Source: Octopus sinensis (lineage: Eukaryota). Taken from it: 64,000 nucleotides of DNA. The notes below the pieces were generated by a model. It saw only the letters and a program-made list of their open reading frames with translations. It ran no database searches and had not been told where the DNA came from. Location of the stretch: the NCBI RefSeq assembly GCF_006345805.1, contig NC_043001.1:83638001-83702000 (forward strand), written 5' to 3'. Positions 1,488-61,764 of the stretch are shown here, piece by piece (position 1 is the first letter of the stretch; every line of letters begins with the position of its first letter). Both the position numbers and the translations under genes were made by a program.

Positions 1488-1604
1488 ATATACATACAAA
1501 CACACACACACACATATATACATATACATACAAACGTACATAATTTATATATCAACTCACGTGTTCATTTTCAACTTACTACACACACACACACACACAC
1601 ACAC

Positions 1605-3701
1605 ATGGTAGTGTCGGCTATAGCCTAATCACCCGTATAGTTAATCAGGTGATACACAAAGGAGTCATACCCAATGACTGGTGTAGCAGCATAATAGTCA
1701 ACTGCTACAAAGGTAAAGGTGACGCCCTAGATACAAATAACTACAGAGGTATCAAGCTGTTGGATCAGGTGATGAAGGTTACGGAGAGGGTCATAGCCCA
1801 ACTAATTAGAGAGAGAGTTAGTTTAGATGAGATGCAGTTTGGGTTTGTGCCAGGGAAAAGTACCACTGATGCTATATTCCTGGTAAGGCAGCTGCAGGAG
1901 AATACCTAGCCAAAGATAAGCCCCTGTACCTGGCTTTTGTTGACATGGAGAAAGCCTTCGACAGGGTCCCCCGATCACTTATCTGGTGGTCAATGAGGAA
2001 ACTAGGGATAGATGAATGGTTAGTGAGAGCTGTGCGGGCCATGTATAGGGACGCTGCTAGTAAGGTGAGGGTTGGCAACGACAACAGTGAAGATTCCGGT
2101 AGAGGTAGGGGTCCACCAAGGCTCAGTCCTCAGCCCCTCCTATTATCATAGTCCTCCAGGCAATAACGGAGGATTCAAGACAGGATGCCCTTGGGAGCTC
2201 CTCTATGCTGATGACTTGCTCTAATTGCTGAGTCGCTATCAGAACTGGAGGAGAAGTTTCAGGTGTGGAAACAAGGATTAGAATTGAAGGGCCTTAGAGT
2301 CAATCTAGCTAAAACCAAAGTCGTAATCAGTAGGAAGGTAGACAAATCACAAACGCCTTCAGGTAGATGGCCCTGCTCGATCTGTAGAAAAGGTGTAGGT
2401 AGAAATTCTAGAAGATGTACCAAGTGTAAGCTATGGACACATAAGAGGTGCAGCAATGTCAAAGGAAGGCTAACTAGGAAGATGGTTTTTGTATGTGGCA
2501 GATGCTCAGGAACAATAAACACTGAACATGCTCTGAGACCAACTTCCGTCACTTTCCAGGGAGAAAAACTAGAAATAGTTGATAGTTTCCGTTACCTAGG
2601 TGACCAAGTCAGCAGCGGGGGCAGGTGTGCTGAAAGTGTAACTGCTAGAGTAAGAATAGCTTGGGCAAAGTTCAGAGAGCTCTTACCTCTGCTGGTGACA
2701 AAAGGCCTCTCGCACAGAGTAAAAGGCAGACTGTATGATGCGTATGTACGAACAGCCATGCTACATGGCAGTGAAACATGGGCCGTGACTGCTGAGGATA
2801 TGCGTAAGCTCGCAAGAAATGAAGCCAGTATGCCCCGATGGATGTGTAATGTCAGTACTCATACTCGGCAGAGTGTAAGTACCTTGAGAGAAAAGCTGGA
2901 CCTAAGAAGCATCAGTTGTGGTGTGCAAGAGAGACGTTTGCGCTGGTATGGTCATGTGGCGAGAATGGATGAAGATAGTTGTGTGAAAAAGTCCCACACC
3001 CTAGCGGTTGAGGGAACCTGCGGAAGAGGCAGACCCAGGAAAACCTGGGACGAGGTGGTGAAGCACGACCTTCGAACTTTAGGTCTCACTGAGGAAATGA
3101 CTAGAGACCGAGACCTCTGGAAGTGTGCTGTGCGCGAGAAGACCCGGCAGGACAAGTGAGTCCATAACCCGTGGCCTTCTACATGGGATGGAGCCAGCCT
3201 ACGTATGCATACCTTCCCTTCTTGGGACACAAAGCTCTACTTGTGAAGACCTGTTGAGGCAAGTGAGGATCAGAATCGAAATCAATCAATGGAAATTGCA
3301 GATGTGTTACCAGTGCCGGTGGCATGTAAGAGAACCATCCGTTTGCGACCGTTGCCAGCGCCGCCCTGACTGGCCTCGTGCCGGTGGCACGTAAAAAGCA
3401 CCATCCATTCGTGTCCGTTGCCAGCCTCGCCTGGCCCCCGTGCTGGTGGCACATAAAAAGCACCATCCGTTCGTGGCCATTTGCCAGCTCTGTCTGGCAC
3501 CTGTGCGGGTGGCACGTAAAAAGCACCCACTACACTCACGGAGTGGTTGGCATTAGGAAGGGCATCCAGCCGTAGAAACACTGCCAGATCTGACTGGGCC
3601 TGATGAAGCCTTCTGGCTTCACAGACCCCAGTTGAACCGTCCAACCCATGCTAGCATGGAAAACGGATGCTAAACGATGATGATGATGATGATGATGATG
3701 A
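1605..3701 (+). mobile_element. 5'-truncated RTE-clade LINE (frameshifted RT, 3'UTR, (GAT)n tail)
   Basis: Consecutive ORF pieces give RT motifs: KGKGDALDTNNYRGIKLL, QFGFVPGKSTTDAIF, DMEKAFDRV, GVHQGSVLSPLLF (~2109), YADD (2204-2215), FRYLG, LHGSETW, RRLRWYGHV and GRGRPRKTW. Stop at 3159. The 3'UTR has tandem hairpin units and a (GAT)n tail. Inserted in a (CA)n tract. Confidence 0.95.
1649..3159 (+). pseudogene. RTE ORF2 reverse transcriptase remnant with C4HC3 finger; several frameshifts
   Basis: ORFs 1649-1909, 1945-2151 and 2263-3159 are successive parts of one RT in different frames. Confidence 0.9.
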
Positions 3702-11927: not shown

Positions 11928-12559
11928 GCTCAGTTGAACAAATCAATGCCAGTACTTATTTCTTTAAAAGCCTAGTACTTTTGCTGAACCATTAAGCTAC
12001 AGGAACGTAAACAAACCAACACCACTTCTCAAATTGTGATTAGGACAAATACAAACACACACATACAATGGGTTTCCACACAGTTTCAGTCAAATTTCCT
12101 CACAAGGCATTTGTTTACCCTCGGCTATAATAGAAGGTATTTGTTCAAGGTGCCATGCACTGAAACTAAACTTGGGGTTGATGTAATTGACTTACCCCTA
12201 CCCCAAAATTGCTGGCTTTGTGCCAAAATTTGAAGTCAATATTTGTAGTTAAAATGGTTTAGATATTAGTACAGGCATGGCTGTATGGTAATAAGCTTGC
12301 TTCTCAACCACATGGTTCTGGGTTCTGCCCCACAGCACCTTGAGCAAGTGTCTTCTACTATAGCCTTGGGCCAGCCAAAGACTTGTGAGTGGATTTGGTA
12401 GACAGAAACTGAAAGAAGCCCATCATATATACATATATATATATACAGTGGTTGGACAAAATAATGGAAACACCTAGCATGATAGCATCACAATTTTGAA
12501 ATATCCATAAAACTGTCAAAAGCTTGTTTATTTTTATGTCTTTTTAATTTATTATTATC

Positions 12560-13620
12560 ACACATCCATCAGAGCATACTGGCTTCATTTCTTGCGAGCT
12601 TACGCATATTCTCAGCAGTCACGAAACATGGGCTGTGACTGCTGAGGATATGCGTAAGCTCGCAAGAAATGAAGCCAGTATGCTCCAATGGATGTGTAAT
12701 GTCAGTATTCATACTCGACAGAGTGTAAGTACCTTGAGAGAAAAGCTGGACCTAAGAAGCATAAGATGTGGTGTGCAAGAGAGACGTTTGCGATGGTATG
12801 GACATGTGACGAGAATGGATGAAGATAGTTGTGTGAAAAAGTGCCACACCCTAGCGGTTGAGGGAACCTGTGGAAGAGGCAGACCCAGGAAAACCTGGGA
12901 CGAGGTGGTGAAGCACGACCTTCGAACTTTAGGTCTCACTGAGGAAATGACTAGAGACCGAGACCTCTGGAAGTGTGCTGTGCGTGAGAAGACCCGGCGG
13001 GACAAGTGAGACCATAACCAGTGGCCTTCTACATGGGATGTAGCCAGCCCACTTGTGCATACCTTCCCTTCTTGGGACACAAAACTCTACTTGTGAAGAC
13101 CTGTTGAGGCAAGTGAGAATCAGAATCAAATCAGAATCGAAATCGATCAATGGAAATTGCAGCTGAGTTGCCAGTGCCGGTGGCACGTAAGAGAACCATC
13201 TGAACGTGGCCGTTGCCAGCACCGCCCTGACTGGCCTCATGCCAGTGGCACGTAAAAAGCACCATCCATTTGTGGCCGTTGCCAGCGCCGCCCCGACTGG
13301 CCTTGTGCTGGTGGCATGTAAAAAGCACCAACCGTTTGTGGCCATTGCCAGCCTCGCCTGGCCCCCGTGCCAGTGGCACATAAAAAGCACCATCCGATCG
13401 TGGCTGTTTGCCAGACTTGTCTGGCACCTATGCCGGTGGCACGTAAAAAGCACCCACTACACTCATGGAGTGGTTGGCGTTAGGAAGGGCGTCCAGCCGT
13501 AGAAACATTGCCAGATCAAACTGGGCCTGGTGCAGCCTTCTGGCTTCCCAGACCCCAGTTGAACCGTCCAACCCATGTTAGCATGGAAAGTGGACGCTAA
13601 ACGATGATGATGATGATGAT
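12560..13620 (+). mobile_element. 5'-truncated RTE LINE with 5' inverted duplication
   Basis: ORF 12635-13009 is nearly identical to the C-terminus of 2263-3159. 12560-12621 is the reverse complement of ~12635-12696. (GAT)n tail. Confidence 0.92.
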
Positions 13621-14196: not shown

Positions 14197-15221
14197 TGAC
14201 AGATCTATTGGACTTTCAAAGAGGTTAAATTGTTGGTTCTTGTATGGCAGGTGCTAACGTAACAAAAACAGCTGAAATGTTTGGTGCATCAAGAAGTACT
14301 GACTGGAAAGTAATGACAACCTTTGAGAAAGAGAGAAAAACTTCCAGAAGAAAACCAAACTTTCAGATAGGGACTGTCAGACACTTAAGCAGACTGTTAG
14401 AAAGGATCACAAAAGTAAAGCTCCCAAAATTACTGCAGAGCTTAATGACCACCTCGAGAACCCTGTTTCCATAAAAACTGTTCACCAGGAGCTGCACACA
14501 GACGGATTTCATGGGAGGGCTGCAATCAGAAAACCACTACTTTCAAAAGGGAAGGTATGCACATTGTAAAGCGTTTAGAGTGGAGTAAAAACCTACAGAA
14601 TTGGTCCCTAGAGCAGTGGAAGAATGCTATTTTCTTAGATGAGTCATCCTTTACCTTATTACTGACCACTGGCCGAGCATATATGTAAGACAGCCAAAAG
14701 AAGCATTTGACCCAGACTGCCTTCTTCCAACTGTTAAACATGGAGTAGGATCTGTGATGATTTGGGTGGGGGGGGGTATATCTTGGAAATCCACCGACCC
14801 AATGGTTTCCCTTCATGGAAGAATTAATAGTCAAGACTGTTTGAGCATTTTATCTGATCAAATTCATCCTATGGTTGCAGAACTGTTTCCAGAGGGAAAC
14901 GCAATCTTTCAGGATGATAATGCACCAATTCACACAGCTAAAGCTGTTACTGAATCGCACGAAGAACATTCTCATGAAATTGAAAATCTTATCTGGTCAC
15001 CACAGTCCCCAGATCCCAATATTATTGAATATTTATGGTGCATTTTAGAAAAACAAGTAAGGAGTCGATATCCTCCACCATCATCACTACAAGAGCTGGA
15101 AACTATTTCAGCTGAAGAACGAACAAAAATTCCTTTGGAAACAATTCAAACTTTGTATGAGTCCATACCTCGTAGAATTCAAGCTGTAATTACTGCCAAA
15201 GGTGGTCCTACTCCATATTAA
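14197..15221 (+). pseudogene. Tc1-like transposase pseudogene (DD36E spacing)
   Basis: MTDLLDFQRG*IVG..AGANVTKTA (HTH start), FLDES (~14632), VMIW.G, FQDDNAPIH, WSPQSPDPNIIE and AVITAKGGPTPY*. Contains stops and frameshifts. Confidence 0.9.
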
Positions 15222-15365
15222 AATAAATTTGTTTGAAATTTTAAGGTGTTTCCATTATTTTGTCCAACCCCTGTATATATATACGGTGACCAGTGAATAG
15301 ATTTCACTGTAAATATATATATTTGCAAAGGCTTGGCAGGTATCTCAACTAGCAGGACTTACTAC

Positions 15366-15411
15366 TCTGGACTGATGACGGGCAAGACCCAGAAATATGC
15401 ATGTCTTCAGG
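15366..15411 (+). ncRNA. Type I hammerhead ribozyme motif with long extended stem I (15318-15459)
   Basis: TCTGGA-CTGATGA-cGGG caaga CCCa-GAAA-TATGCATG-TC^TTCAGG. Stem I is 6 bp with 2 GU pairs, helix III is near-palindromic, and the site is GUC. There is a C.A mismatch at the base of stem II. Confidence 0.75.
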
Positions 15412-15578
15412 TTGCTAGTCCTAGCTGGTGGGAGTGCTTGCCTCCCCTTCGCAAATATAAGGACACAGGAAATGTGTCAAAGCCGACAGGAAGCATCGAT
15501 GCTTCCTAGGGCTAAATAGCGGTGGTGTAATTCCCTTTATGGGACTGTCACATTATGTCGATAGTATACAACCACTCA

Positions 15579-19900: not shown

Positions 19901-22584
19901 ATGAGTAAAGAGAAACTAAGACTACAAAGAAAGGAAAGTAATCCTTACCAGCAGAAACATGGTGAAATGCTTTGCCACAGACTCAGGCAAAGTCTCAAGT
20001 TGTGGTTTCGTTATTATCCATGTTATGATATACCAACGGTTGAGCCAGACAGAGAAAGAAGCGCTGTATCTAAACTATATATATACGTAACTGATTATAT
20101 GTATATATATATATATCTGTTTATAGACAGATATCAACTAAGTGTGTATATCAATACATCCATATATCGCTTGCAACTTTCAATACTACGACAACGCATG
20201 CCACACGTTACTCGCATGGCTTATCACGGAAATGAACGGAAACAGACGGAAATCTAACGAAAACTGTCGGAAAGAAATATGAAGAAAAAAAATAATAAAT
20301 ACTGTGTGTTTATTTATTGTTCATTTAATATTGATGAGGACAATGATGGTGATGATGATTGATGGAGGTGGGCGTAGCGAAGAAAGAGGAAGTGGAGGTT
20401 TTTTTTATGGTAATAGTCAGAGTGAAGGCTGAGAAGGTATGGTAGTGGTGTTAGGGTGGGGATAATGAAGACGGAGAATTTAGGAAAGATGGCAATGATA
20501 GCGGAGGAGAAGGCGATGGAAGTGAAGGAGGACAGGGATGAGGATGAAAGGAGAAAAAGATGATGGGTGTAGAAATAGCGTGTCTGGAGCGAAAGTATGA
20601 TGGCGGTGGGGAGATTGACGGAATGAGGATAGATATGTGGAGAGAGAGAGGCAGCGATAACGGGATGAAGAGGAGATGGTGATGATGAAGATGGTGATGC
20701 CAAAAGTAAAGATGTTGGTGGAGCTGAGGAGTAAGGGTTTGTCAAATAAATGGCGCGCTCCAAGGTGAAAACGTGATGATGGTATGAGGTGGATATGTAG
20801 AAGGAATGGTAATAGTGACAAAAAGAAATGGGGGTGCAATAACGGAATGTGGGGTGGCATAAATGTTTTATTTTGCCCGAGGGAGAAGGGACGTGCCCAT
20901 AGCCTTCTACGGCTATTGTTGAGGTGAAGACTAAGAGCAGTTAGACAAAATTATTCGAGGTGGATAAGGTTTATTCCAGCTCAGTTTCAACCCTTCAAGG
21001 TCAGTCTCTGATCCCGCCAGTCTTTTTCTCTCGCTTCCATGAAAGTGATGGAAACAGTTGTGAACGATCATTTTAACTGATCGTTTTGCATATCTTTTTT
21101 CCCCCCTCAGTGACCGTCAATATACAGATTTATTGGTGCAGCCAGATCAATGTCTGGGGACCAGACACTTATATGCCAAAACAATATTGTTGCTCTTGAC
21201 ATCATGAAAACCTTTGAACGTGGCCGGGACGAGGATCTCATAAGATGTCGGTTTATAAGATCCATTCGTTATTCGTTCTTGGGTTTGAAGTTTCAAACAG
21301 TTTACTTCATTACAGCAGAAGTTAATAGAGTTGTCCCGGATCCAAATTGTTATTGTTGCGTAGCACTAAGCCATCTTCGGTCAAATAGACGTTACATCAG
21401 TGGTTCTGAATCATATTTCTTTTTATCTATGAACCCCTTTGATTACTATTTAATTCTGGTAGATCCCCATAACCATTCGTTGTTTTAAAAACTAATTTTA
21501 TAGATACTTCTTTCAAAATTTCTATTTTGCTATTCATTCGTCAACTTGTCTAAACTGAATTATGAACATGTTAGAGAAAGAGACCAAACTATCTCTTGCA
21601 AAACATTACTGTGGATCCCAATCTATTTTGCTAGCGCTGATCCTCCAAAATTTCATATGGACACCGGTTGAGAATGACTGCCATATAGCATGGACTATAT
21701 CAGTCGGCAAATTGTACGAGTTCCACATATCTAGTGCTCCAGATTTACTACGCCCTCGCGTAGCTTGTGGACCGCTTTGTACACTCCGAGACGAAATAAG
21801 CACAAGAGCTGCTGTGTGATAGTACGGATAACTTTTATCCTCTACCTGTTTCATTCATAGAGCTGCGGTCACGTTGAGGCACTGCCTTGAAAGGGTTTTA
21901 GTCGAACATCACCTAGAATACTTACGGGGAGATAAACAAACCGATGCCGGTTGTTAAGCGGTGGAAGTACACACACACACACATAAATTCACAAACACAC
22001 ATACGCACACACAACAGGCTTTCGCAGTTTCCGTCTACCAAATTCACTCACATGGCTTTGGTCAGCCTGGGACAGTATCAGAAGATATCTGCCCGAGGTG
22101 CTGTGCGGTGGGACCGAACCCGAAACGACTTGGTTGCAAAACGAGCTTCTTAACCAAACAGCCACACTGCGATATGCTGTACTCTCTATAGTCCAATATA
22201 TTTTCTGTATAACAGTTGTGCCTGTTTAATCCTGATTGAGAACAAACCTATGATCAAATATATTCCGGCTGTGCGCAACCCGTTGTTTTAAAGATATCTA
22301 GAACTGCATTATTTAATATTTTAACTTACATATTTGTAAGGTACGATTTGATTTGAGGGAGATTTTGCTGTTATTTGTAGCTTCGCAAGTAGAGGCTCTA
22401 AGTGGGACTCTAGCAGAAGACAATCTCAGTCAGAGAGTGACAGTTATGTTCGTCTGCACGTATTAGTGGTACGCAACCCAGCATGGTGATGAAAGCCGAT
22501 AAAGTTATACATGCTGGAGCTGAGTATGTGTGGAAGAAGGAAAGTGTTGCGTCCTATCAAATTTGTTTGAAGCTGGATGAGAGC

Positions 22585-22866
22585 GGAGGCGCAATGGCCC
22601 AGTGGTTAGGGCAGCGGACTCGCAGTCGGAGGATCGCGGTTTCAATTCCTAGACCGGGCGTTGTGTGTGTGTTTATTGAGCAAAAACACCTAAAAGTTCC
22701 ACGAGGCTCCAGCAAGGGGTGATGGCGACCTCTATTGTATTCTTTCGTCACAACTTTCTCTCACTCTCTCTTCCTGTTTCTTGAGTAACGCTGCGATAAA
22801 CTGGCGTCCCGTCCACAAAAACCGGGAAACCAGGCCCATGAGTCTGGCTAGGCTTCAAAAGGGCGA
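22585..22866 (+). mobile_element. tRNA-derived SINE family C
   Basis: A box TGGCCCAGTGG and B-box-like GTTTCAATTCC. Copies at 26080-26320 (-), 26758-27005 (+), 28083-28262 (+), 28276-28528 (-), 44650-44956 (-) and 48160-48460 (-). Confidence 0.85.
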
Positions 22867-23466
22867 CGTTTATTGTTTTATATGGATGTGAGCGGTAAGC
22901 AGGGTTCGAGTGATCGGACGTGCTTCGAGCATGCGCCTATGTATTATGAAGGATAACTTCAGAAAGGGCATTTGCCTTATTGGCCAGGGTAAATGTAATT
23001 GTGTAGGATTTCTACGAGCAGCTTTCCCCATTTGTAGAATTTCTCTTTGAATAGTTCTTTTTTAAGTTCTACCTTTTTTTAAACTCACTTTTTATGCAAT
23101 CCTACACTGTATCGTCCTGTACCGTCCTCGATATTTTTGCTATCCCTTGGGTTTAATAGGGAAAACTGGTGCTTCGGCAGTCTTGACATTCTGAGTTATC
23201 TTTGACCACTGTGTCCAATCCTTCATCCCCAGAATATCTACCCTCTGGAACCTCCTCGTGTCTTTCCTACAGGTGTTGAGCTGTAATAGGCTAAACGTAG
23301 CATTAACAGCATCAATATCACTAAGGTCGGATTGCCTGCAAGTATCACGAGTTCAGCCTCCTTCTTCTAGTCACAGAATATAAAACACATTCATTATTAC
23401 GCACACAACACACTACAACAGGAAACGAGGATGTGGATGGGGGTCCTTACGTGGCCACTCGACATT

Positions 23467-23837
23467 ACTCTTTTACTCTTTTACTTGTTTCAGTCATTTG
23501 ACTGCGGCCATGCTGGAGCACCGCCTTTAGTCGAGCAAATCGACCCCGGGACTTATTCTTTGTAAGCCCAGTACTTATTCTATCGGTCTCTTTTGCCGAA
23601 CCGCTAAGTGACGGTTAGAGGGACAAACACAGACACACAAACATATACATACACATACATATATATATACATATATACGACAGGCTTCTTTCAGTTTCCG
23701 TCTACCAAATCCACTCACAAGGCTTTGGTCGGCCCGAGGCTATAGCAGAAGACATTTACCCAAGATGCCACGCAGTGGGACTGAACCCAGAACCATGTGG
23801 CTGGTTAGCAAGCTACTTACCACACAGCCACTCCTGC
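23467..23837 (-). mobile_element. tRNA-derived SINE family A
   Basis: Near-full copy with the (AAAAGAGT)n-like tail. Confidence 0.88.
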
Positions 23838-24371
23838 GACATGCTAGAAATAACAGCTAAATCTCTCTCAACTACTAGTTACCGTCGTATAAAAAGTAAG
23901 ATATATTGGGTAATGTACAATAGTTCTAGATACATTAAAACCCACTTGCTCCCGACCCGTCAAAAAAAAAAAAAATCGGGATAGTTAAAATTGGAATATA
24001 TGCAGACATAATGTGTAACAACACTGTTTTACACACATTTTACAGCAGAGTTGCACTACTAGTTCTATAAACAGAAATACATTGAAAATAATCTCACTTA
24101 GCAGCACTAAGATTATCACATTTTATTACAAGGTTATTAATATGAAACATAACTACTGCCATGGGGCGCTCCATACGAATAATCGCTGCGCGGCAGCATG
24201 TCTTCAGTTGTATTGAACATGGCAAGTCTGAAACAATTGACCAGTGGATCGAACCCAACCACTGCAAGGAAATCCTAAATCTGGTGTGGCAACTTGCTAA
24301 TTGAATGGAGTTTCGAAGTAATCCCCCTCCCCCCTCTCTGTCGATGTATATATATATATAATATATATATA

Positions 24372-24409
<38 letters not shown>

Positions 24410-24413
<4 letters not shown>

Positions 24414-24580
24414 AGAGTTTAGGAAAAAAAGACGAAGACAGGTAGTGTACAAAACAAACAGATGTATTAGTATAACGCTCAGGATAGAAAAAGTCTTTTA
24501 CGTTTCGAGCCTACGCTCTTCTACAGAAAGGGACACAGAAAAAACAAAGAGAGAAAAAAATGTGTGTAGTGGCTAACGAT
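24410..24580 (-). mobile_element. Penelope-like terminal fragment with degenerate minimal HHR (24495-24530)
   Basis: Minus strand CTTT-CTGTAGA-A-GAGC gtag GCTC-GAAA-CGTA^AAAG. Homologous to 36750-36900 (+). Confidence 0.55.
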
Positions 24581-24599
24581 ATATATATATCGTGACGTA

Positions 24600-24830
24600 T
24601 ATTTGCCATTTCAATATGGCTACCCCTAAGGGTGGATGCTACTGTAGTTTTTAGCCCCAGGAGGACACACTCCTCCAGCTGGCCATAGACACACTTTCTG
24701 TGCCCTGTCAGTATTTGCAAAGGGAAGTCATCCTTCCCGTCTTCAACTTATGATACACACGGACTCGAGTTTCGAGGTATTGACCTCTCGTCAGCGTGTG
24801 ACAATCATAGTTGTCGGCGAGAATTAGATT
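24600..24830 (-). mobile_element. Non-coding HHR-bearing element (retrozyme/Penelope-LTR-like)
   Basis: HHR plus downstream hairpins homologous to 15420-15550 and 62050-62220. Bounded by TA-rich microsatellites. Confidence 0.7.
24756..24800 (-). ncRNA. Canonical type I hammerhead ribozyme
   Basis: Minus strand CACACG-CTGACGA-GAGG tcaata CCTC-GAAA-CTCGAG-TC^CGTGTG. Perfect 6-bp stem I and 4-bp stem II, full core, and a GUC site (cut between 24762 and 24761). Stem I extends through a small internal loop (CAACTATGAT/ATCATAAGTTG). Confidence 0.9.
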
Positions 24831-24832
24831 TC

Positions 24833-24866
<34 letters not shown>

Positions 24867-24959
24867 CCGATTATTTCTATGTCCCCGCGCATGAGACAAC
24901 CTTAAGACATTTATTAGATGGCCGTTGACTCTCATTCATTCATTCATTCATACATACAT

Positions 24960-25024
<65 letters not shown>

Positions 25025-26701
25025 TACATACATAGGTGCAAGTGCGGCTGTGTGGTAAGAAACTTGGTTCCAAAACACATGGTCCTGGGTTCAGTCCCAC
25101 TGAGCGGTAACTTGGCATGTACCCGATCGCGCGGTTAAACCATTGGGAGTGAAGGATTCCTAGCCTTTGTTAGGGCATCCTTCTAGGAGAAGGTAACTCT
25201 GGTAACTGGGATAACTCCGACATAAAACCTGCGGCTCAGTGGTTACCGACGATGTTGACTTATTCTTCTTTTCGGATTATGGCTGCTGTTGCTTAGTGAT
25301 AGAGATTGACTCAGTGCACAGCCTTTCCTCACTTTAAAAAAAATCTTCTTGCACAGGCATTGCACGATAACAACATTGATTAAGCTTCGTGCAATGGCCA
25401 TACTCGATAACGAGGGGGCAGCCACCATGTATGTATGTATGTATGTATGTATGTATGTATGTATGTATGTATGTATGTATGTATGTATGTATGTGTGTGT
25501 GTGTGTGTGTGTGCGTATGTAGTGGCTTAGTAGTTAGGGAGTATTCAGCTCGCGATCGTAGGGTCGTAAGTTCGATTCCCGGCGGCGCGTTGTGTCCTTG
25601 AGCATGACACTTTATTTTACGCTGGCAAAACATTAGCAGTACCTGTATTGCAAAGAACCAACATTGTCAGATTCTGTGTCATGCGAATCTCCCCAAGAGC
25701 TACGTTAAGTGTCTTTGGGGTGCTCAGCACGTTAATTTCACGAGCAGGTTGTTCCGTTGATGGGACCAACTGGAACCCTTGTCACAACCAGTGGGGTGTC
25801 AGGGAATCTATCTATCTATATAACTACAAACGTGCTGTTGGGGATTTCCCCCCTTCTTTGGATGTTTCCTTTACCGATGAAGGGTGATGCTCGAAACGTC
25901 AAAAACACTTTCTTTTTACTGAACGTCAAACTAATACGTACCATGTACAGTCTTCTTCTTGTTTGCTATTTTCAATGTTCGTTTATTCCTTTTGACTATG
26001 TGTGTGTGTGTGTGAAGGCGCATGGCCTAGTAGTTAGGGTGTTGAACTTTGATCTAAATAAATGAAAAAAAAATGTTCCTTCTCGAGCCATGCCAGGCTC
26101 ATAAGGGACGGTTTCCCGGTTTCAGTGGCGTAGAAATTCCCCACATGGACGGGACGCCGGTTCGTCGCAGGATTACTCATTTTTGCCAGCTGAGTGGACT
26201 GGAGCAACGTGAAATGAAGTGTTTTGCTCAAGAACACACCGCATCGCCCGGTCCAAGAATCGAAACCACAACCTTACGATCATGAGTTCAACACCCTAAC
26301 CACTAAGCTACGCGCCTCCACACTATTGATCTAGCAGTCGTAATTTCAATTCCTAGACCGCGTGGTGTATTGTGTTCTTGAGCAAAATACTTCATCTTAC
26401 GTTGTTCAGCGATCACTTCGACGCCTGACCTTCGAAACGTGGAGTAGATGAAACAAAGGCGACTGAAGAAGGGGAATTTTCCTTGTTTTGTATGTCCTGT
26501 ACTCTATTTTTTCGTTGTTTAAGAAAAATGTCCATTCCCTTGGTTTTGTGTTTATGTTTTCGTTTCTCATTGTGTTCGACATTTTTTTGGTGTCCTGTAC
26601 CCATATATGCATGTATATATTCATGTAGAGGTAGGTACGTACATATATGTGTGTATATATGCATATATTTTATTTATTTATTAATTTATATATATGTATA
26701 C

Positions 26702-26756
<55 letters not shown>

Positions 26757-27006
26757 TGGAGGCGCAATGGCCCACTGGTTTGAGCAGCGGACTCGCGGTC
26801 GTAGGATCGTGGTTTCGATTCCCACGAGGCTCTGGCAGGGGGTGGTGATGATCCCTGCTGTACTCTTTCGCCACAACTTTCTCTCACTCTTTCTTCTGTT
26901 GGCCTGCTCGCTTAGCCAGCGGGGTGGCGTCATTTGAAGGCTAAACAATGCGAAGCGCATTGTGACCAGCGATGTGTAGCAACATCTGATAGCCCGGTCG
27001 ATCATG

Positions 27007-27067
<61 letters not shown>

Positions 27068-29509
27068 GATAGATAGATACCAAAAGAGGAACGCAGTAAA
27101 GTACGACACGCAACCAGAAGTGAATTCCATATTGTACTCCAGTATTCAGAGTAGTACCACGTTGGGCAAGACTTTGCCCCCCCCCCCCCCCCATCACCCA
27201 TTTTAAAAACTTTCTTTTTTTTTTTTTCAACACAAATACGAATCTACCAAAAAACTGGCAAAAATCGACATTTCTAAATTAACACCCCCACCCCAATTTC
27301 CTTCATTTAAAACTTTCTTCAGAATTTTTTTTTTCTCAAAATATGCGGAAAAATATGGAGATTATGATTCTGAAAAAAAATTTCTAAAATTTTTGTAAAA
27401 TATTTTTTAACAATTTTTTCTTTTCGAAATATGCAGAAAAAATACGGACATCAGGATTCGGACAAAAATTTCAAAACATTTCTGTACTTACGGCTAGGGT
27501 TTTATGGTTAGGGTTAGGGTTTTAGGGTTAGTATTGTGGAAAAAAGTCAAAATTGAAGAAGTTGCGAGGAAACGGGGGTGGGAATTTTTGACAATTTTTC
27601 GGAACCACCGTATCCGAAAACGGATTTTTGGCAAAAAAAAAGAAAATTTTTAATAAACAAATTTGTGAGAAATGGAGTGGAAGGGACGGGTGGAAGTCTT
27701 TCCATGGGCAACAACCTCAGGATAGGCTGTTGTGCGGAATATGAGCCAAAAAATAGAAGAAATAATAATAAAAACAAGAAAACTTATGAAGTATCTAAAG
27801 CTTTATGGTGGATAACCGTGTTTCAATAAAGTTGTGTTTGTGTGTGTATATGAAATGTGTTAGTGTTTGTCTTACGCAAGAGTAATTCGGGGTGGGAATA
27901 CAACATTTCTGAAAAAGTGCCACGGACATCCGTGTGTAACAGCAAACGTGTAAGAATGTATAGTATATGATTTGCATGTGTTATTCTTTTATTATATTAT
28001 GCATTTCAGCCATGTTACTGTAGTAATGCAGGCGCACCAGGTTTATATATATATCATTTATTTATTATTTAATTAAATGCGACGCAGAAAGTAATGGCGA
28101 ACTTGTGCTGACTCTTTTGCCAAAACTTTCTCTAACTCTTTCCTCCTGCATCTTGCAGCTCACCTGCGACGGACCGGCGTCCCGTCTAGGTGGAGAACCT
28201 ATACGCCAGGAAAACCGGGAAACCGGCCCTTATGAGCCAGGCGTGGCTCGAGAAGGAACGAATGATATATATGGTTTCCTTGGCGTATAGGTTCCCCACC
28301 TGGACGGGAAGCAGGTCCGTTGCAGGTGAGCTGCAAGATGCAAGAGGAAAGAGTGAGAGAAAGTTGTGGCGAAAAAGTCAGCAGAAGTTCGTCATTACCT
28401 TCTACCGGAGCAGCGTGGAGCTTAGGTCTTTTCGCTCATAAACACACACATCGTCCGGTCTGAGATTCGAACCCGCGATCCCTCGACCGCGAGTCCGCGC
28501 TGCTCTAACCACTTGGCCATGTGCCTCCACATACACACACACACACACACATATTGCTTCCTGGGAGTGACACAAGTTCAAAATATGCCCGGCCACTTAT
28601 AATAAAGCACTCAAAGATAAGTTTGAATCTGCGTATGTATAGCAAAGCAAATAACAGAAAGTTTGAGTGAAGTTGACGCTAAAGAACGGAAATAAGTTAT
28701 AGAATGTGTGTGCGTATATATGTATATATGTATGTATGAATGAATGTTTACGACACTCACACGAACGCATATACAACCCTCCACACACACACACACATAT
28801 ATATATACAGAGAGAGAGAGAGAGAGAGAGAAAGGGACAAACATACGCACCCATACACATGTTCACACACACATTCCCACTCCGTCTATGTACACATACC
28901 AACACACACACACACACACACGCACATCCATTCACACAGCCTTCAGACTGCCTCTCAGACACCCTTCAAGCTGCCCCTACTCACTATTGACCATCCCATC
29001 TACGCATACGTGCAAAAACACATACACACTATCACAACCACCCATATGCACACCTGCCACCATAGTTGCTGAGCTCTCACTACGACATTAACAAACACAC
29101 ACAGACCACTCACACAAACACATGTAAACAGTTGATACAACACACACACACACACAGAGTTACTGCTACACACACACACGGTATCACACACACATGCAAC
29201 CACCATCACACGCACACACGCAGTTACTGCCATACGCACACACGCTACCATACACACACGCAATCACACACACATACCACCACATACACACAGATACCAA
29301 CCATTCTTCACTCTCTTGTCTCAGAAAGCCCTTTCTTTTTGTTCAACTACTTCCGGTTATTTCATAAATGTAACTACACGTGGACTGTTGGCGATTCACC
29401 CCCTCTTTCTTCCTTTTCGTTTGGACTCTCCTATGTCTCCTGTTTCCGAAGAAGAGCTTGGCACGAAACGTAAAACAACCACTCTTTCTTTTCCCTCTGA
29501 GTGTCTCAG

Positions 29510-31037
29510 CCGGAATTTAAAAAAAAAAAATAGTGCAATGGGTGTAAAAAAAATGCGTAGGAAACGAATATGAAAACAAAAATGCGCGGAAAGCAACGGT
29601 GGGTGTGGGAAGAGGACATTGGAAAATTCACAAGATCCGAGTTTTCCTTCATAACTTTTAGGAAAATGGGTTTTTTTAATGAAATTTTATATAAATACTT
29701 TCCAAAAGGCATAGATTATAATTATAAAGAAATTTGTGGGGAAAATCTTTTCCGAAGGGGTGGGAAGAGGACTTCGGAAAATTCACAAGATCCGAGTTTT
29801 TTGCCCATAACTTTGAGGAAAATAAATATTTAAAAATGAAATTGTATATAAATACCTTTCAAACGACATGCATTATGGATGTCTAATGTGCCGTAAACCC
29901 CTTATTTTTTGTTCGGAAAAAAAAAGCGCGCGGGGTGGGGGGATTATTGGAAAATATTGTTTTTTTTTCGATGAATGAATTACGGTGCCATAAAACACTT
30001 TTTTCTTTTTGTCCGCAAAATGGGGGCAGCTTCTGTCTTTAAAATTTCGTGAAATTTTTACAAGTGCGCCTTTACCATAATTAGGAATCCGAAGAAACTT
30101 TTTCAAAAAATGCGTTTTTGGAGGTGAGGTGCGAAACTGCATTAGCCCCCCCCCCTATTTTACCCATATTTTAAGATAGCATTTTGCAGAAATACGTTTT
30201 CTAGAGTGTGGATTACATTTGACTGAAAATTCAAACAAGTTTGAAAAGAATAATTAGTGAAAATGCTGAAGTGATAAAAATTAGTGGTAACGAAATCTGG
30301 ACAAGAGAGACAAAGGATGATACAAAATCCTTATAAAAGCTACGTCAGTGTTTGCGTGTGTATGAAACAAGTAAAAGTATAATATTAAAACAAAATATCT
30401 TTTATATACTTCTTAAAAATCACTGGATATATTGATTGCAGATTGTGGCATATTCGGTCACCGTAATTCATTCCGGTTCTTACCTCCCCACTTTTTTCCG
30501 AACAAAAATAAGGGTTTAGTGGCACATTAAGCATCTGTGATGCATGCCGTTTGAAAGGTATACATATACAATATCATTAAAAGATATCCATTTTCCCTAA
30601 AGTTGCGAGGAAAAAAATCGGATCTTGTGAATTTTCCAAAAGTCCTCTCCCCACCCACAAATTTCTCTATAACCGTAATGTATGCCGTTTGAAAGGTAGT
30701 TATATAAAATTTCATTAAAAAAAAAATCCATTTCCCTAACAGTTATGAGGAAAAAACTCGGATCTTGTGAATTTTCCGAAGTCCTCTCCCCACCCCATCG
30801 GGAAAAGATTTTCCCCATAAATTTCTTTATAATCATATTCTATGTCGTTTGAAAGGTATTCATATAAAATTTCACTAAAAAAGATCCCCATTTTCCGAGG
30901 GAAAAACTCGGATCATGTGAATTTTCCGAAGTCCTCTCCCCCAGCCCCGTTGCTTTCTATGCATTTTTGTTTTCATATTCGTCTTCTATACATTTTTTTT
31001 ACACCCGTTGCACTATTTGTTTTATTTCATTTCCGGG
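29510..31037. mobile_element. Large foldback element with ~450-550-bp modular inverted arms
   Basis: 29510-29930 mirrors 30480-31037. The arms are built of repeated GGAAAATTCACAAGATCCGAG...GAAATTTTATATAAATAC modules. Related pieces at 35230-35740. Confidence 0.7.
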
Positions 31038-31088
31038 AAATATTGTAAACATTAACCCGTCTCATTAAATCTTAGCATGCACTTCGTA

Positions 31089-31596
31089 CCGTAAATCTTC
31101 GAGTATAATCCGCATTTTTCCCCAAAATTTAAAGGTCAAAATCCCTAGTGCATACTATATACGAGGTTAAAAATGAAAAATATTTTCTAAGCAATATCAG
31201 AGTCTCTATTTGCTGTCCGGCAATGTTTATTCAGACGCATTTTGTGATGTCGGGCGCAAAAATACCTTAAGCTAAGCCTGAAAGCAATGAAGTCATAAAA
31301 TAATCACCCATAACTTGTTGTAAGCAACATTTATTAAAATAAAAAGTATTCAGAACACAGAATAACAACATGTAACAAAAACAATTTGAAAACATATTCA
31401 CATTCCCATATAACAGTTAAGAACATCACCATTATTGTATTACGCATGCGCAGAAGTTTTTGTTCGACTAGGTGTTGCTGGCTTCATTACGCACGACTCA
31501 AGTTAGAGAAGGGGTGCGTCTTATACACAAGGTTTAGATTTTTCAGATGTACAACCCCCTAAAATTCCCCTGCGTATTATACTCGAGGATTTACGG
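31089..31596. mobile_element. Pogo/Tigger-like MITE
   Basis: TIRs CCGTAAATCTTCGAGTATAAT / ATTATACTCGAGGATTTACGG with TA on both sides. Confidence 0.8.
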
Positions 31597-32063
31597 TACT
31601 CGCGTTGTTTTTTTCCTCCTCTTTTTTTTTTTAAATTACGTTTTTGGATTTGGTTTGCAAGATTCTTTATGTGAATTCGTGTGTTGAAGCATATTCTGTT
31701 GTGTCTGGGAGAGTCATTCTTTTTTAATGCCTTATGATTTAACACACTCACCAGTAAAATTTCCACTTATTTACTTATTTATTTTCCTACAATTTTCGTT
31801 GCGTCTTGCAAACTTCTCAACAGTTGTTGACTCTGTCCGTTCGTTATTCAAGCTGCGCTCTTTTTGTTTGTTTGTGCGCATGTGTGTGGGTCAGCGTGTG
31901 TGTGCATACACATGTGTGTATGTATGCTTGTATGCATATATATATGCATGCATTCAAATGTGTGTATGCATGTGTGTATGTGCGTATGTATATATAATAT
32001 GTATGTGTATACGTTGGTATGTTTGTATTCTGCATATTCATGTGTTTGTGTGCCTCTGTCTCC

Positions 32064-32098
<35 letters not shown>

Positions 32099-32413
32099 GG
32101 TTTTTGTGACTATGTACTGTGTCTGTATATATGGTTGTATATCAGTGGACATGTGTCTCCATATGTGTCCTTGTGTGAAGTGTGTGTGTATATGGTCATG
32201 TGTTTCAGTCTTCATTTGCGTATGTGTGCTTGTCTGTTCATATTACCTATGTACCTATCTGTCTGTATGTCTATCTGTTTACTTTCATATCCATTTGCCT
32301 ACATACATGTGCATATACATATACACACACATACATACATCCACATAACAGCCCACTAACTAGTCTACATGTACATAAATATAAACTGTGGGTATGGGGG
32401 GTATGATTACCTA

Positions 32414-32836
32414 CTACGTATATTTCCTTTTTAGTACTTGGGATGTTTCATTTATGAGGACGTACTCCTGTATTTGTCTGAGGGTTGGGTCCTTTGGATG
32501 CTTAGATAAAACGCGGATGTCAAGTTGACCCAGGTTACCTCCATGTTGGTCCTTGGCGTATTGGTAGAGTATGGTGGACTGTTTTTCGTTGTCATATTCT
32601 CTTAAATGTTCATTTAGTCTTTCCACAATGCTCCTAGATGTCTCTCCTATGTGTGTCATGTTCATGTCTTTATAAGCACCTTCTATGCATCTTATGTTGT
32701 ATACTACATTACTTGTTCTACAGTTAATGCCAGGGCTAATCCTACATACCATGCAGTTATCATTGATGCATATGGTATTCTCAAAGGGGTGCGTCCTACA
32801 TAGTTGTGATCTGATGGATTTCCCTGGCTTATGCAT
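32414..32836 (-). pseudogene. Penelope-like element GIY-YIG endonuclease fragment
   Basis: C..NCMVC...NCRTSNVVYNIRC....HIGETSRSIVERLNEH...R.IQE..LI matches the PLE pattern VVY..C..YIGET.R.L..R..EH with an upstream Cys linker. Confidence 0.85.
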
Positions 32837-32971
32837 CTGAACGAAACGTTAGTCGAGTATATGGTGTTGTTACTCAGGCACTTAGTTATGAGTCCACCGT
32901 ATCCAATAGCGGAAACAGCTGTAAGCTAATAAGGTTCATAAGATAATTGTTTATTCCTTTGTCATCTACTA

Positions 32972-33000
<29 letters not shown>

Positions 33001-33002
<2 letters not shown>

Positions 33003-33220
33003 TTCTTTACTACCCACAAGGGGCTAAACACAGAGAGGACAAACAAGGACAGACAAATGGATTAAGTCGATTACATCGATCCCAGTGCGTAACTGGTACT
33101 TAATTTATCGACCCTGAAAGGATGAAAGGCAAAGTCGACCTCGGCAGAATTTGAACTCAGAACGTAACGGTAGACGAAATACCGCTATGCATTTCGCCCG
33201 ACGCGCTAACGTTTCTGCCA
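33001..33220 (-). mobile_element. tRNA-derived SINE family B
   Basis: Consensus GGCGAGCTGGCAGAAACGTTAGC..GAGTTCAAATTC..GCCTTTCATCCTTTCGGGGTCGATAAA. Copies at 38190-38575, 39445-39637, 41640-41868, 43548-43773, 47345-47531, 51450-51615, 60000-60575, 60799-61230 and 63470-63680. Confidence 0.88.
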
Positions 33221-33940
33221 CTGTTGTTGTGGACGGGTCCTCACTTTACAGGCTTCCATGGCCTTTCTTGCCGCTTGAATGCTGGTCGCTTCGCTTGTCA
33301 TACGGAGTTGAACCTGATACTCAAGAGAATCTTGGCTCGGGTAAACATCCCCTCCATCTTGGAACCATCTGGATTGTCCAGATGTGATGGGAAGAGACCT
33401 GACGGCCTCACCTTGTGCCTCTGATCGCAAGGCAGATGCCTTTTCTGGGACGTAACAGTTAGTGACTCCTTTGCTTCTTTGCACATCCTGGATGCTGCGG
33501 TCAGGGCGAGATCCACAGCTTCTGCGGCCGAGCGGAACAAAATCCTGAAATACCGCGATCGGCCAACTACATCTTCCATCCTGCGGGGTTCGAGACGTTT
33601 GGTGGGGTCGGACCACTAACTGCGAGATTCCTGCCTTCACTGGCAACTCGCTTGGCTGTTCCAGCGCATCAGCCTAGCCATCATACGCAGAAACGCTGTA
33701 AGCGTGCTGGCATGCCCCAATCGCCATTAGAGAGGTTTCCCAGCGCCCCAACTTTTCAACATAAGGTGGTGAATTATTCTGTGTTTTTCTTTTTTCTCGT
33801 TTTTCTTTTCTCTTTTTTCTTTTTAATTCTTTCAATTGCGTTCTCTGTTATGTCTAATTTTCTAGTTTAATTTTGTAAAACGGTAAACACTGTGAAGATT
33901 TTCGACCTAGTTTGCAGATTGTCATCAGTTTAATAAATCT
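33221..33940 (+). mobile_element. 3' fragment of an RLE-type non-LTR retrotransposon (CRE-like)
   Basis: [71 protein letters not shown] has the RH/RPD/WD-T/E..K..KY layout of a restriction-like endonuclease. Confidence 0.8.
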
Positions 33941-34665
33941 TACTTACAAAGTGTATCAGTCATTTGACTGCGGCCATTCTGGAGCACTGCCTTTAGTCGA
34001 ACAAATCGACCCCAGGACTTATTCTATGTAAGCTTAGTATTTATTCTATCAGTCTCTTTTGCCGAACCGCTAAGTTACGGGGACGTAAACACATCAACTT
34101 CGGTTGTCAAGCGATGGTGGGAAGACAAAAACAGACACATACACACACACACACATATATATATATATGTATACGACGGGCTTCTTGCAGTTTCCATCTA
34201 CCAAATCCACTCACAAGGCTTTGGTCGGCCCGACATTATAGAAGACACTTGCCCAAGGAGCCACGCAGTGAGACTGAACTATGCACACAGCCACGCCTGC
34301 GCCTATAGCAGAATACTCTTGCTCAAGGAGCCACGCAGAGAGACCGAACTCGGAACCATATGGTTAGGAAGCAACCATCTTACCATACATCCACGCCTGT
34401 CGTAACGTGGTCCAACTGCGTGCCTGGAATAAGGCAAGTGCTGAGAGAGAGGGCACGGCATATATTTATATTTAATGTAATTGCTCTTTTTGCTTTCTTT
34501 TGAAATTTTCTATTTCAGTGCAAACTCCCCTATGGCCCCGATCATGCTGCGTCACCATTTTTTCACATATAAATTGTGCCTATTATAATTTTTACGTATT
34601 TGTAAACGAACCTCTAAAACAATGGTAGAAATAAGTTGCTTTTTTTTTCTTTTTTTTTTGTAAAA

Positions 34666-34855
34666 GGCGTAGGAGTGGCTGTGTGGTAAGTAGCTTGTTT
34701 ACCAACCACATGGTTCCGGGTTCAGTCCCACTGCGTGGCACCTTGGGCAAGTGTCTTCTACTATAGCCTCGGGCCGACCAAAGCCTTGTGAGTGGATTTG
34801 GTAGACGGAAACTGAAAGAAGCCCATCGTATATATGTATATATATATATATATGT

Positions 34856-34908
<53 letters not shown>

Positions 34909-35121
34909 TGTGTCTGTGTTTGTCCCCCTAGCATTGCTTGACAACCGATGCTGGTGTGTTTATGTCCCTGTTACTTAGCGGTTCGGCAAAAGAGACCGAT
35001 AGAATAAGTACTGGGCTTACAAAAGAATAAGTCCCGGGGTCGAGTTGCTCGATTAAAGGCAGTGCTCCAGCATGGCCGCAGTCAAATGACTGAAACAAGT
35101 AAAAGAGTAAAGAGTAAAAGA
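34666..35121 (+). mobile_element. Full-length tRNA-derived SINE family A with internal (TA)n(TG)n
   Basis: A box TGGCTGTGTGG, B box GTTCAGTCC, CCTTGGGCAAGT and tail (AAAGAGT)n. Many copies in the window, e.g. 33955-34400, 39865-40030 and 55570-55950. Confidence 0.9.
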
Positions 35122-35828
35122 GAGAGCTGAATTTTATTTTAACAAGAAAATTTCGGAGTATTACTGACCAATCTAGTGGAAAGTTTGGCGTGAAAAAAGC
35201 ATGATTGGGTGTGTGTCACAAACACGGTGGTGGTGGTGGTGGGGGGGGGGGGTGGACTCGGATAATTCACACGATCCAGTAACTCGGGTCAAACACTGGA
35301 GTTTAAAGGTCAAGGTCTGAATTTTCGGAGTCCTCTCCTTCCGCCCCCACCCCGTTCGCCAGCGTGCAGTTTTTTTTTTTTTTCATTTTCGTTTACTACA
35401 TGTTGTTTTATACCTATTACACTATTTTTTTTTCTCATTTTTGTGACTGGATGTCGAAGTAGGGTTACTGGATCGTGTCTATTATCCGAGTCCGCACCCC
35501 CAACACACATCACAAGAATTGAAAAAAAAAATAGTGTACTAGGTGTAAAATAATATTCAGTAAACGAATATGAAGAAAAAAAATTTCGCCGACGGACGAG
35601 GAAATGGTGAGAGGACTTGGAACATTCCCGATGTGAATTTTCCGAGTCCTCTCCCCGCCCCCGTTCGCCAGCGCGCATTTTTTTCCATATTCGTTTACTA
35701 CATTTTGTTGTACACCCATTGCACTATTTTCTTTCTTTTTTTGCTTCGGTCAAACACTTTAGTTTGACCGAATTTTTGTGTGCATTGTTGCTTATTTTTG
35801 TCGTATGAATCATAAGAATGTTTCTGAA

Positions 35829-36256
35829 CAGCGCTGGATTAACCATTAAGCAAAATAAGCACGTGCTTAGGGAATCAAGGGAAGGAGGGGGGGTCACCAC
35901 AGAAATGGTAAATGGCTTACGGCACAAAAGAAATCACTTTAAACCTGTTTAAAATAATATTCGGGATGCCTTCATCTCTACTAAGTATAGAATGCAGATG
36001 TGTTACTTAAGAATAATTTTGAGGATCTGATCAAAGACTTTGCAATTCAAAGAAGTAGGAAGAAAATTTCAAATATAAATAAAGTAGAAGTATACAAATA
36101 TAAACATTATTTTCCCCTGTAACTGTTTAGTTTCGTTTTGAAAAATAATTTATTTTATGGTTTGCTATTGATTATATTTTGAATTACACAATCTTTTATG
36201 AGGGCACCAAACTCTTTTAAGTGCTTAGGGCCTCGATGGGTCTTTATCCGGCCCTG
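35829..36256. mobile_element. hAT-like non-autonomous element
   Basis: Ends CAGCGCTGGATTA / TATCCGGCCCTG with subterminal GTGCTTAGGG motifs. No clear TSD. Confidence 0.6.
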
Positions 36257-36610
36257 GCCGAGAAGGAACCCAAACAGAAACATACGCTAGAGAATTTCAA
36301 GTTCATAATTCTGCTGTACACGCGTGAAAATTTTGGCAAAGGTACTCGCTAAACAGGAGGAAAGAGGGAAGCAGGGCTGGTCCTTTTGATGCCATTGATT
36401 GCCATGGTAACATCGGATCAGTAGGGTTCTTCGATTGTTCCTAGGCCAATATCCTATTCTTTTATGGGGGCACAAAAGTCTCTAAATGCTCAGCGCTTCA
36501 GTGTCTGAATGTGTGTATGATTATATCACATCGTTTCAGATTTTTGTGATTGTTGTTAATATTTTTCAGTGTGGTGGTGTTGTCTTTTTTTTCTAGATGG
36601 GTAGATAGAG

Positions 36611-36693
<83 letters not shown>

Positions 36694-36699
36694 CATACA

Positions 36700-36731
<32 letters not shown>

Positions 36732-36777
36732 CATACATACATACATGTATTTTCTCTCCCTATTTATTTCTATGTTC

Positions 36778-36813
36778 CTTTCTGCTGAAGAGCGTAGGCT
36801 CGAAACGTAAAAA
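36778..36813 (+). ncRNA. Degenerate minimal HHR-like motif in a Penelope-like terminal fragment
   Basis: CTTT-CTGCTGA-A-GAGC gtag GCTC-GAAA-CGTA^AAAG. The core deviates from CUGANGA at one position. Confidence 0.45.
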
Positions 36814-36902
36814 GACTTTTTCGCTTCCCGAGCGTTAAACTAATACATCTGTTCGTTGTTTACACACACGTCGTCTTTTTTTTTGTAAATTCTCACTATA
36901 TA

Positions 36903-36938
<36 letters not shown>

Positions 36939-36944
36939 TGTATG

Positions 36945-36999
<55 letters not shown>

Positions 37000-39813: not shown

Positions 39814-39866
<53 letters not shown>

Positions 39867-40027
39867 TCTTTTACTTGTTTCAGTCATTTGACTGTGGAGC
39901 ACCGACTTTAGTCGAGCAAATCGACCCCAGGACTTATTCTTCGTAAGCCTAGTACTTATTCTATCGGACTTTTTTGCCGAACCGCTAAGTTACGAGGACG
40001 TAAACACACCACCATCTGTTGTCAACA

Positions 40028-61600: not shown

Positions 61601-61764
61601 ACTTAAAAAAAATATATAAAAACTACTACTCGGCTATTGAAAAGAACACGATCGTTAAATAACTAATCTCTCTGTTGAAAAAAGTAATTATACAATTAAT
61701 ATATATTTCCTGATTGTGTGGTCATCAGAGCTTACATAAAGATGCAAAACAATGATAATTTTAT

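Follow-up and report, generated by a model that had tools for sequence, protein, structure and literature searches.

A maintained RNA fold downstream of a hammerhead ribozyme in Octopus sinensis, probably the conserved 3′-terminal region of a high-copy Penelope-like element family

The window, a 64,000-nucleotide stretch of the Octopus sinensis genome (NC_043001.1, positions 83,638,001 to 83,702,000, forward strand), contains hammerhead ribozymes that are followed by a chain of hairpins and A-rich motifs for which the ribozyme itself does not account. An earlier note, made from the letters alone, described this chain as a domain of about 110 nt with covarying hairpins and suggested that it might be an element for recognition or priming by a reverse transcriptase (RT), or else an unrecognized RNA motif. 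The question raised by this locus is what the domain belongs to, whether its fold is maintained by selection and which function such a fold could serve.

The three hairpins and both A-rich motifs were found where they had been placed in all three copies, here called c15, c24 and c62. In c15, on the forward strand, single-copy folds place hairpin P1 at 15430–15446, and the sequence together with the folds delimits the conserved linker TTYGCAAATA (in this copy TTCGCAAATA) at 15448–15457. Hairpin P2 (15462–15478) is followed by P3 (15481–15516), which consists of a lower AGCC/GGCT stem, an internal loop, an upper covarying stem (15488–15507) and an unpaired AAA; the GGGCTAAA motif after hairpin 3 occupies 15509–15516. 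The corresponding part, with the same hairpins and motifs, lies at 24738–24650 on the reverse strand in c24 and at 62073–62160 on the forward strand in the right arm of c62, with an inverted twin in the left arm. The extent originally given to the domain proved to be too short, as it continues to about 15570 and takes in two more hairpins, the fourth weak and the fifth strong. P4 (15532–15544) has 3–4 bp and shifts in register between copies, and the terminal hairpin P5 (15544–15575) carries a Y-RTTNW-R loop at +146 from the predicted cut, followed by TATAC and an AC-rich end near 15575 that is uncertain. The chain of hairpins described in the earlier note does exist and extends further than stated there, and its spacing relative to the cut is closely kept among the copies: P1 starts at +24/25, GCAAATA lies at +44/46, P2 starts at +56/57, GGGCTAAA lies at +104/105 and the P5 loop at +146/149.

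Each copy folded alone yields P1, P2 and the two-part P3, with z values for P1–P3 of −2.5, −3.1 and −2.9. In the single-copy folds of all three copies GGGCU forms the 3′ strand of the lower P3 stem, and therefore only the AAA that follows it is unpaired; the block that had been taken to follow hairpin 3 is thus partly inside it. On the 5′ strand facing the invariant GGCU, variation is limited to what wobble pairing allows. The YGC of the linker may also pair with 15519–15522 (probability 0.56 in c15) to close a three-way junction; c15 and c62 form this UUYGC–GCRR helix in their best folds, whereas in c24 it is broken or shifted, and it is treated as a possibility only. Pairing of the GGG of GGGCUAAA with a downstream CCC was discarded, not being the single-copy optimum in c15 or c24 and appearing as an alternative in c62 only. 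Pairing of the 5′ end of the cut product with the 3′ end of the copy occurs in the folds, and was rejected because shuffled sequences equal it in 361, 198 and 388 of 2000 cases. No open frame through the domain is common to all three copies, and a coding constraint across it was rejected on that ground.

With c24 and c62 as its only input and an automatically derived structure, a covariance model recovered the held-out c15 with 39 bits (E = 1.2e-8), the runner-up in the 64 kb scoring 9.3 bits, so that c15 is a true distant relative; a sequence-only model from the same two copies gave it 25 bits (E = 9e-7). By blastn only c24 and c62 are linked, and c15 to neither, and the pairwise domain identities of the three subfamilies are 61%, 65% and 73%. 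Strong model matches in the window are confined to four places, namely c15, c24 and the two arms of c62. Since these arms are identical at 199 of 200 positions and count as one event, the window represents three independent insertions. The A-rich motifs had been called conserved, which holds for the c62 family, where no listed variant reaches 4%, but less so for the c15 family, where variants stand at 10–30% (in run X1, 15452 C>T 19%, 15456 T>C 28% and 15515 A>T 11%).

Maintenance of the fold was assessed against two null models. When one copy was mutated at random to the distance of another (n = 2000, six directed comparisons), the summed hairpin energy was −17 to −21 kcal/mol, compared with −40 to −46 kcal/mol observed, and the observed value was matched in 0–2 of 2000 runs in all six directions. 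A stricter letter-redraw null, in which the differing positions are kept and only their letters are redrawn (n = 2000), did as well in 5–87 of 2000 draws for all hairpins summed. Taken singly, P3 passes this null in three of the six comparisons (3, 12 and 16 of 2000) and P5 passes it in the c15–c62 pair (3 and 19 of 2000); P3 does not beat it with c62 as target (908 and 943 of 2000) or from c62 to c24 (168 of 2000), nor do P1 (118–1401) and P2 (427–817). Changes on both sides affect 10 of 33 pairs, against a shuffle mean of 4.0 (0/500) and at most 2 when slid, and 89% of the paired cells are occupied by pairs, both values coming from an alignment fitted to the c24 structure and hence leaning towards structure. 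On a plain MAFFT alignment, RNAalifold gives a different pairing for the GGG block, a covariation term of −0.2 and both-side changes in only four of 29 pairs.

Hairpins 1 and 2 contribute one or two double changes each, and two more double changes, in phase, occur in loose-end lines of public contigs (61880 with 61891, and 61911 with 61917). Among the best 40 of 74 rows for the c15 family, six of the seven variants at paired positions keep the pair, and variants are not depleted at paired sites (these sites make up 46 of the 84 positions and hold seven of the 16 variants). For the c62 family, three of eight variants at paired positions keep the pair alone, three fall within two double changes and two break it. 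The opposite strand folds about equally well (z of −3.2, −2.4 and −0.7), and c62 alone has a z of −2.1, or −0.2 if P1 is clipped. The description of the hairpins as covarying is borne out for hairpin 3, and extends to the newly found hairpin 5, but not for hairpins 1 and 2, which are conserved mainly as sequence. From the two nulls, the double changes and the pair-keeping variants, it follows that the fold is maintained; the covariation is solid but below R-scape grade, three subfamilies being too few for significance at that level.

The boundaries of the copies reveal what kind of unit carries the domain. The c24 copy (24589–24835, reverse strand; domain 24738–24605) has a tail-less end near 24589 in (TA)n. 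The c62 locus consists of head-to-head inverted arms flanked by 16-bp direct repeats. Its left arm (61808–62020, reverse strand) has a complete hammerhead core (62012–61980, with C3 = U) and the full domain, and its right arm (62021–62220, forward strand) is 5′-truncated inside the hammerhead and tail-less. The repeats are an AT-rich target-site duplication (61749–61764, forward strand, with the second copy at 62219–62234), and a 43-nt tail is present at one end only (61765–61807, reverse strand), with a 5-bp hairpin bearing a C[GTTCA]G loop. No target duplication is discernible at c15. The tail is family sequence, as the summed depth in the contigs of public runs falls from 664,135 to 155 across 61755–61764, with a sharp edge at 61763–61765, and loose ends beyond its edge are AT-rich with agreement near 0.5; it is common to the c24 subfamily, one loose-end line joining c24 sequence to the same tail. 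Tail-less ends lie 170–172 nt after the cut in c62, about 173 nt in c24 and about 170 nt (uncertain) in c15, which is 18–21 nt past the P5 loop, and the tailed end lies at about +215. In c62 a C[RTTCA]G loop is found on P5 as well as on the tail hairpin; a hairpin of this type arises in 1.7% of shuffled tails, a modest, after-the-fact signal, and the loop-to-end distances are unequal (18 nt for P5 and 9 nt for the tail hairpin). The start of the tail (61797–61813, reverse strand) matches the 5′ half of the hammerhead (62002–62018, reverse strand) at 13 of 17 positions, as was noticed after the fact (7/2000 shuffles), and the tail could be what is left of a former, now degraded repeat unit.

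In the public contigs nine of the 13 joints listed on c15 are strand inversions; none of these 13 (the last 36 bases being skipped as repeat), nor the one listed on c62, is head-to-tail, although contigs show presence and not absence. Summed contig depth falls 20-fold (c15) and sixfold (c62) towards the hammerhead, to which subfamily divergence also contributes. At the domain it reaches 1.2 million, compared with tens for single contigs; this is not a copy number, which we infer to be in the thousands to tens of thousands for the family. A listing of data sets that contain the sequence named no RNA set. Family sequence occurs in contigs of the presumed RNA runs X14 and X17 (61735–62020), which speaks for presence only and not for level or ends; in X17 most contigs continue into unrelated sequence (share 0.83), as in read-through or DNA carry-over.

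The hammerhead near the 3′ end, the inverted 5′-truncated copy beside a direct copy (the c62 arms and the inverted joints on c15), the optional tail at one end (43 nt, against about 30–40 bp) and the 16-bp target duplication in AT-rich DNA at c62, together with the (TA)n insertion at c24, are traits of EN+ Penelope-like elements (PLEs). Indeed, inverted pLTRs accompanied by a tail and a target duplication have been described for rotifer Penelope (PMC3846280) and for EN+ PLEs (PMC8557442). All three loci are single or inverted and form no tandem units with hammerheads of the retrozyme kind, and no circular joint is listed in the contigs of the two runs presumed to be RNA. The A and B boxes or tRNA-like head of a Schistosoma-type SINE/Pol III hammerhead repeat are absent, and comparison by eye with five of six new consensus ends gave no likeness to Hydra-clade 3′ ends; a resemblance of the P5 loop to the Hydra-2_Amil tail hairpin was dropped once other Hydra ends had been compared. 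No coding PLE could be linked to the domain, a search with the tail peptide, itself weak, giving no match. Taken together, the domain is probably the conserved 3′-terminal region of a high-copy PLE family.

Other element fragments lie in the same window. A 144-aa frame at 32414–32848 (reverse strand) resembles, by eye, the GIY-YIG endonuclease of PLEs, cysteine linker included, and has 862 relatives at E values up to 0.001, some of which carry it C-terminally in proteins of about 1000 aa. Neither the frame nor six of its 150 listed relatives have a Pfam match, a word-index protein search and viral contigs gave no match to it, and it is not followed by the hairpin domain. Directly upstream of c15, a Tc1/mariner transposase fragment (14643–15283; Pfam DDE_3) ends in a TA run, and two fragments at 1544–3159 and 12548–13009 resemble an RTE-type LINE reverse transcriptase.

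The hammerheads themselves are of type I with a palindromic stem III in c15 (15367–15410, forward strand; core 15372–15405, predicted cut after 15405), in c24 (24800–24756, reverse strand; core 24794–24762) and in c62 (core 62012–61980, reverse strand). The Rfam model RF00163 scores c24 at 32.2 bits (E = 2e-6), short of its gathering score of 34, and does not report c15; the hammerheads of c15 and c62 were identified by reading the sequence. The ribozyme core is kept at all three loci, and the summed contig depth shows no step or rise just downstream of the cut in c15 or c62, which together argue that the templates are uncut or rejoined. Seven minimal hammerhead-like cores of other repeat families are present at 36785, 51306, 53382, 53520 and 54819 (forward strand) and at 54620 and 50892 (reverse strand), four of them sharing one family sequence; none has the motif pair or the domain, the single match to the first motif being a T-run.

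In c15 the hammerhead sits within an imperfect palindrome (15311–15458, about 55 nt per arm) that is present in the family according to public contigs, the 5′ arm (15311–15371, forward strand) being predicted to pair with 15406–15458. The predicted duplex has an energy of −55.8 kcal/mol (0/1000 shuffles), and in c24 the upstream sequence competes with P1 more weakly (10/1000 shuffles). The predicted probability of P1 in c15 is 0.0 in uncut and 0.77 in cut RNA, so the palindrome is expected to hide both P1 and GCAAAUA in uncut c15 RNA, which weakens the case that both must be exposed. Selection on the palindrome at the RNA level gave no clear signal (seven G–U against four A–C), and palindromes at pLTR 5′ ends are known and have been explained by self-priming (PMC3846280). 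Upstream of the palindrome (15284–15310), a 7-bp hairpin at 15291–15309 is covered by family contigs at a depth of 20,000–40,000.

On balance, the chain seems likely to be a folded RNA platform that the PLE RT binds and from which it starts copying, a reading that draws on analogy with Poseidon PAc. That element depends on the RNA between +20 and +172 of its ORF, within which the hammerhead cuts at +26. Its RT has two internal start sites, one of them at +111–118 inside an AC-rich stem-loop; the sequence that separates the two constitutes the tail, and the RNA serves as template chiefly in its uncut form (PMC11167929). Poseidon PAc is the sole PLE tested in vitro, its binding motif having been mapped by truncation only (PMC11167929). 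The earlier suggestion of RT recognition or priming finds a counterpart here, in that the octopus domain occupies the slot between hammerhead and insertion ends, as does the needed RNA of Poseidon PAc, and the role remains putative. As to priming, the hairpin nearest to the copy ends is P5, which had been omitted, and P1–P3 lie 60–145 nt upstream of the first end.

In the proposed scheme the PLE RT-endonuclease protein would bind P1–P3 and the A-rich linkers as a docking site and would nick AT-rich or (TA)n DNA. Two cDNA starts are envisaged, one immediately 3′ of P5, which would produce tail-less ends (about +170), and one immediately 3′ of the hairpin in the tail, which would produce the end at about +215; P5 and the tail hairpin would act as marks for them. 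The RT would then copy back through the hammerhead, usually dropping off early, and its product would often fold back to yield head-to-head pairs. Selection is proposed to act on master copies, since an RNA that lost the fold would no longer be copied. An uncut template fits badly with the predicted burial of P1 and GCAAAUA in uncut c15 RNA. A variant to which we attach a modest chance would have a three-way junction (P2, P3 and UUYGC–GCRR) with its A-rich joiners dock the RT, and twin Y[RUUNA]R hairpins (P5 and tail) place both starts. If this variant is true, the domain would be a PLE counterpart of the telomerase RNA activating domain and would explain why PLE tails exist.

Several other explanations compete with that of an RT platform. 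The fixed spacing of the helices relative to the cut, and the competition of upstream sequence with P1, strong in c15 (0/1000) and weaker in c24 (10/1000), would also be expected if the fold served the life of the RNA itself, by helping or controlling the hammerhead, protecting the 5′-hydroxyl cut product or shaping a retrozyme-type circular RNA; animal retrozymes are PLE-derived and form structured circles (bioRxiv 10.64898/2026.07.22.740005; PMC7229834). We consider this rather unlikely, given three loci that are single or inverted and not tandem, no head-to-tail joint among those listed, a depth without a rise just downstream of the cut, and 5′ palindromes of pLTRs that self-priming explains (PMC3846280), with G–U not clearly above A–C. 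It is very improbable that the hairpins are inherited fossils or chance folds under no current selection. Such a view could appeal to the small number of subfamilies (three), to windows and registers chosen after the folds had been seen and to the low z of c62 (−2.1 or −0.2), but it is opposed by the neutral null, equalled in 0–2 of 2000 runs in each direction, and by in-phase double changes in independent contigs.

Two further alternatives place the signal in DNA or in translation. Newt satellite 2 has an octamer-type promoter, and in the octopus family the conserved letters might act at the DNA level as an internal pLTR promoter or enhancer, made of the octamer-like TTGCAAAT and a second box, with the hairpins secondary. 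In its favour, conservation of P1 and P2 lies in the letters and not in covariation, TTGCAAAT departs from the octamer at a single position in c24 and c62, and Penelope pLTRs hold an internal promoter and a tissue-control sequence downstream of the start site (PMC2377424). On the other side, P3 and P5 stay paired while their sequence changes, the octamer-like site has two mismatches in c15 and varies in its family, and neither a tRNA nor a conserved Pol III box, A or B, is present, which leaves a promoter improbable. The domain could instead be the 5′ UTR of the next tandem element and regulate translation, with an ATG within P5 as the start codon of the PLE protein. Located in the 3′ arm, this ATG begins a 20-codon frame that runs to the end of the c62 tail (61825–61766, reverse strand) and has the same place in c24, and in rotifer Penelope the pLTR forms the first 12 codons, which the tail extends to 22 (PMC3846280); yet c15 has no ATG in the matching frame, none occurs in the loose ends of its family and no protein with the tail peptide was found in a weak search, so that control of translation appears decidedly improbable.

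The supposition that the domain is an unrecognized RNA motif has held up in the sources consulted. Rfam, the check that had been suggested, returned no family at E below 1 on P2–P5, the hammerhead being the only credible match, and no description of the domain was found in the literature, Repbase, Dfam and most subscription papers lying outside the search. Pattern scans of viral contigs gave 0 and 0 loci, and none of the seven matches in metagenomes (six loci) and GTDB (one locus) fits the model; the six that were inspected have no hammerhead, and all seven are treated as chance and not as relatives. No copy outside the host group was found in these viral, metagenome and prokaryote collections. 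In string searches of a Naiad, Chlamys and Hydra consensus file, where line breaks may hide matches, the motifs occurred only in coding-looking sequence. The family may already be catalogued as a repeat; what is new is an RNA fold under selection that closes an element of familiar type, probably a PLE.

The PLE-type repeat class makes up 6.83% of the Octopus vulgaris genome (PMC13282606), and a model of the domain can aid its annotation. Since PLE RTs, the sister group of TERT (PMC8557442), are the closest relatives of the telomerase RT, their reading of folded RNA bears on the origin of telomerase RNA. How PLE RTs pick their RNA and start at two internal sites is a question for which a domain with mapped helices is a ready substrate, offering natural compensatory variants and two known ends.

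In telomerase RNA CR4/5 and in the R2 3′ UTR core, the RT binds a small branched RNA that is separate from the site where templating begins, and the octopus domain resembles these in role only, with no claim as to sequence or structure. With the pLTR of EN+ PLEs it shares a terminal unit of about 200 nt, a type I hammerhead, head-to-head arms, a target duplication, a one-end tail (30–40 nt there and 43 nt in octopus c62), AT-rich or (TA)n targets and palindromic 5′ junctions, and differs in the multi-hairpin domain between hammerhead and tail, which does not figure in the accessible parts of the descriptions (PMC3846280, PMC8557442). Hydra-clade PLEs, which include an Octopus member, likewise have a canonical hammerhead, an ACTC/GAGT-type stem III and (TA)n targets, but in most of them a central base of stem III is unpaired, unlike what is found here, and the five consensus ends compared by eye contain neither of the A-rich motifs; Hydra-1_Obim differs in its hammerhead and ends about 30 nt after the cut (PMC8557442). 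Animal non-LTR retrozymes are similar in their type I hammerhead with palindromic stem III, absence of protein, likely PLE origin and common solo monomers, whereas the head-to-tail tandems and circular RNA that define them (PMC7229834; bioRxiv 10.64898/2026.07.22.740005) were not seen here. In Poseidon PAc the region is coding and the first start lies 85–92 nt after the cut, whereas in octopus it is non-coding with the first end at about 170 nt, and by eye the start-site RNA given in the accessible text has no motifs in common with the octopus domain. What the two have in common is the arrangement, namely a needed RNA downstream of the hammerhead, two starts that bound a tail, an AC-rich start and an uncut template.
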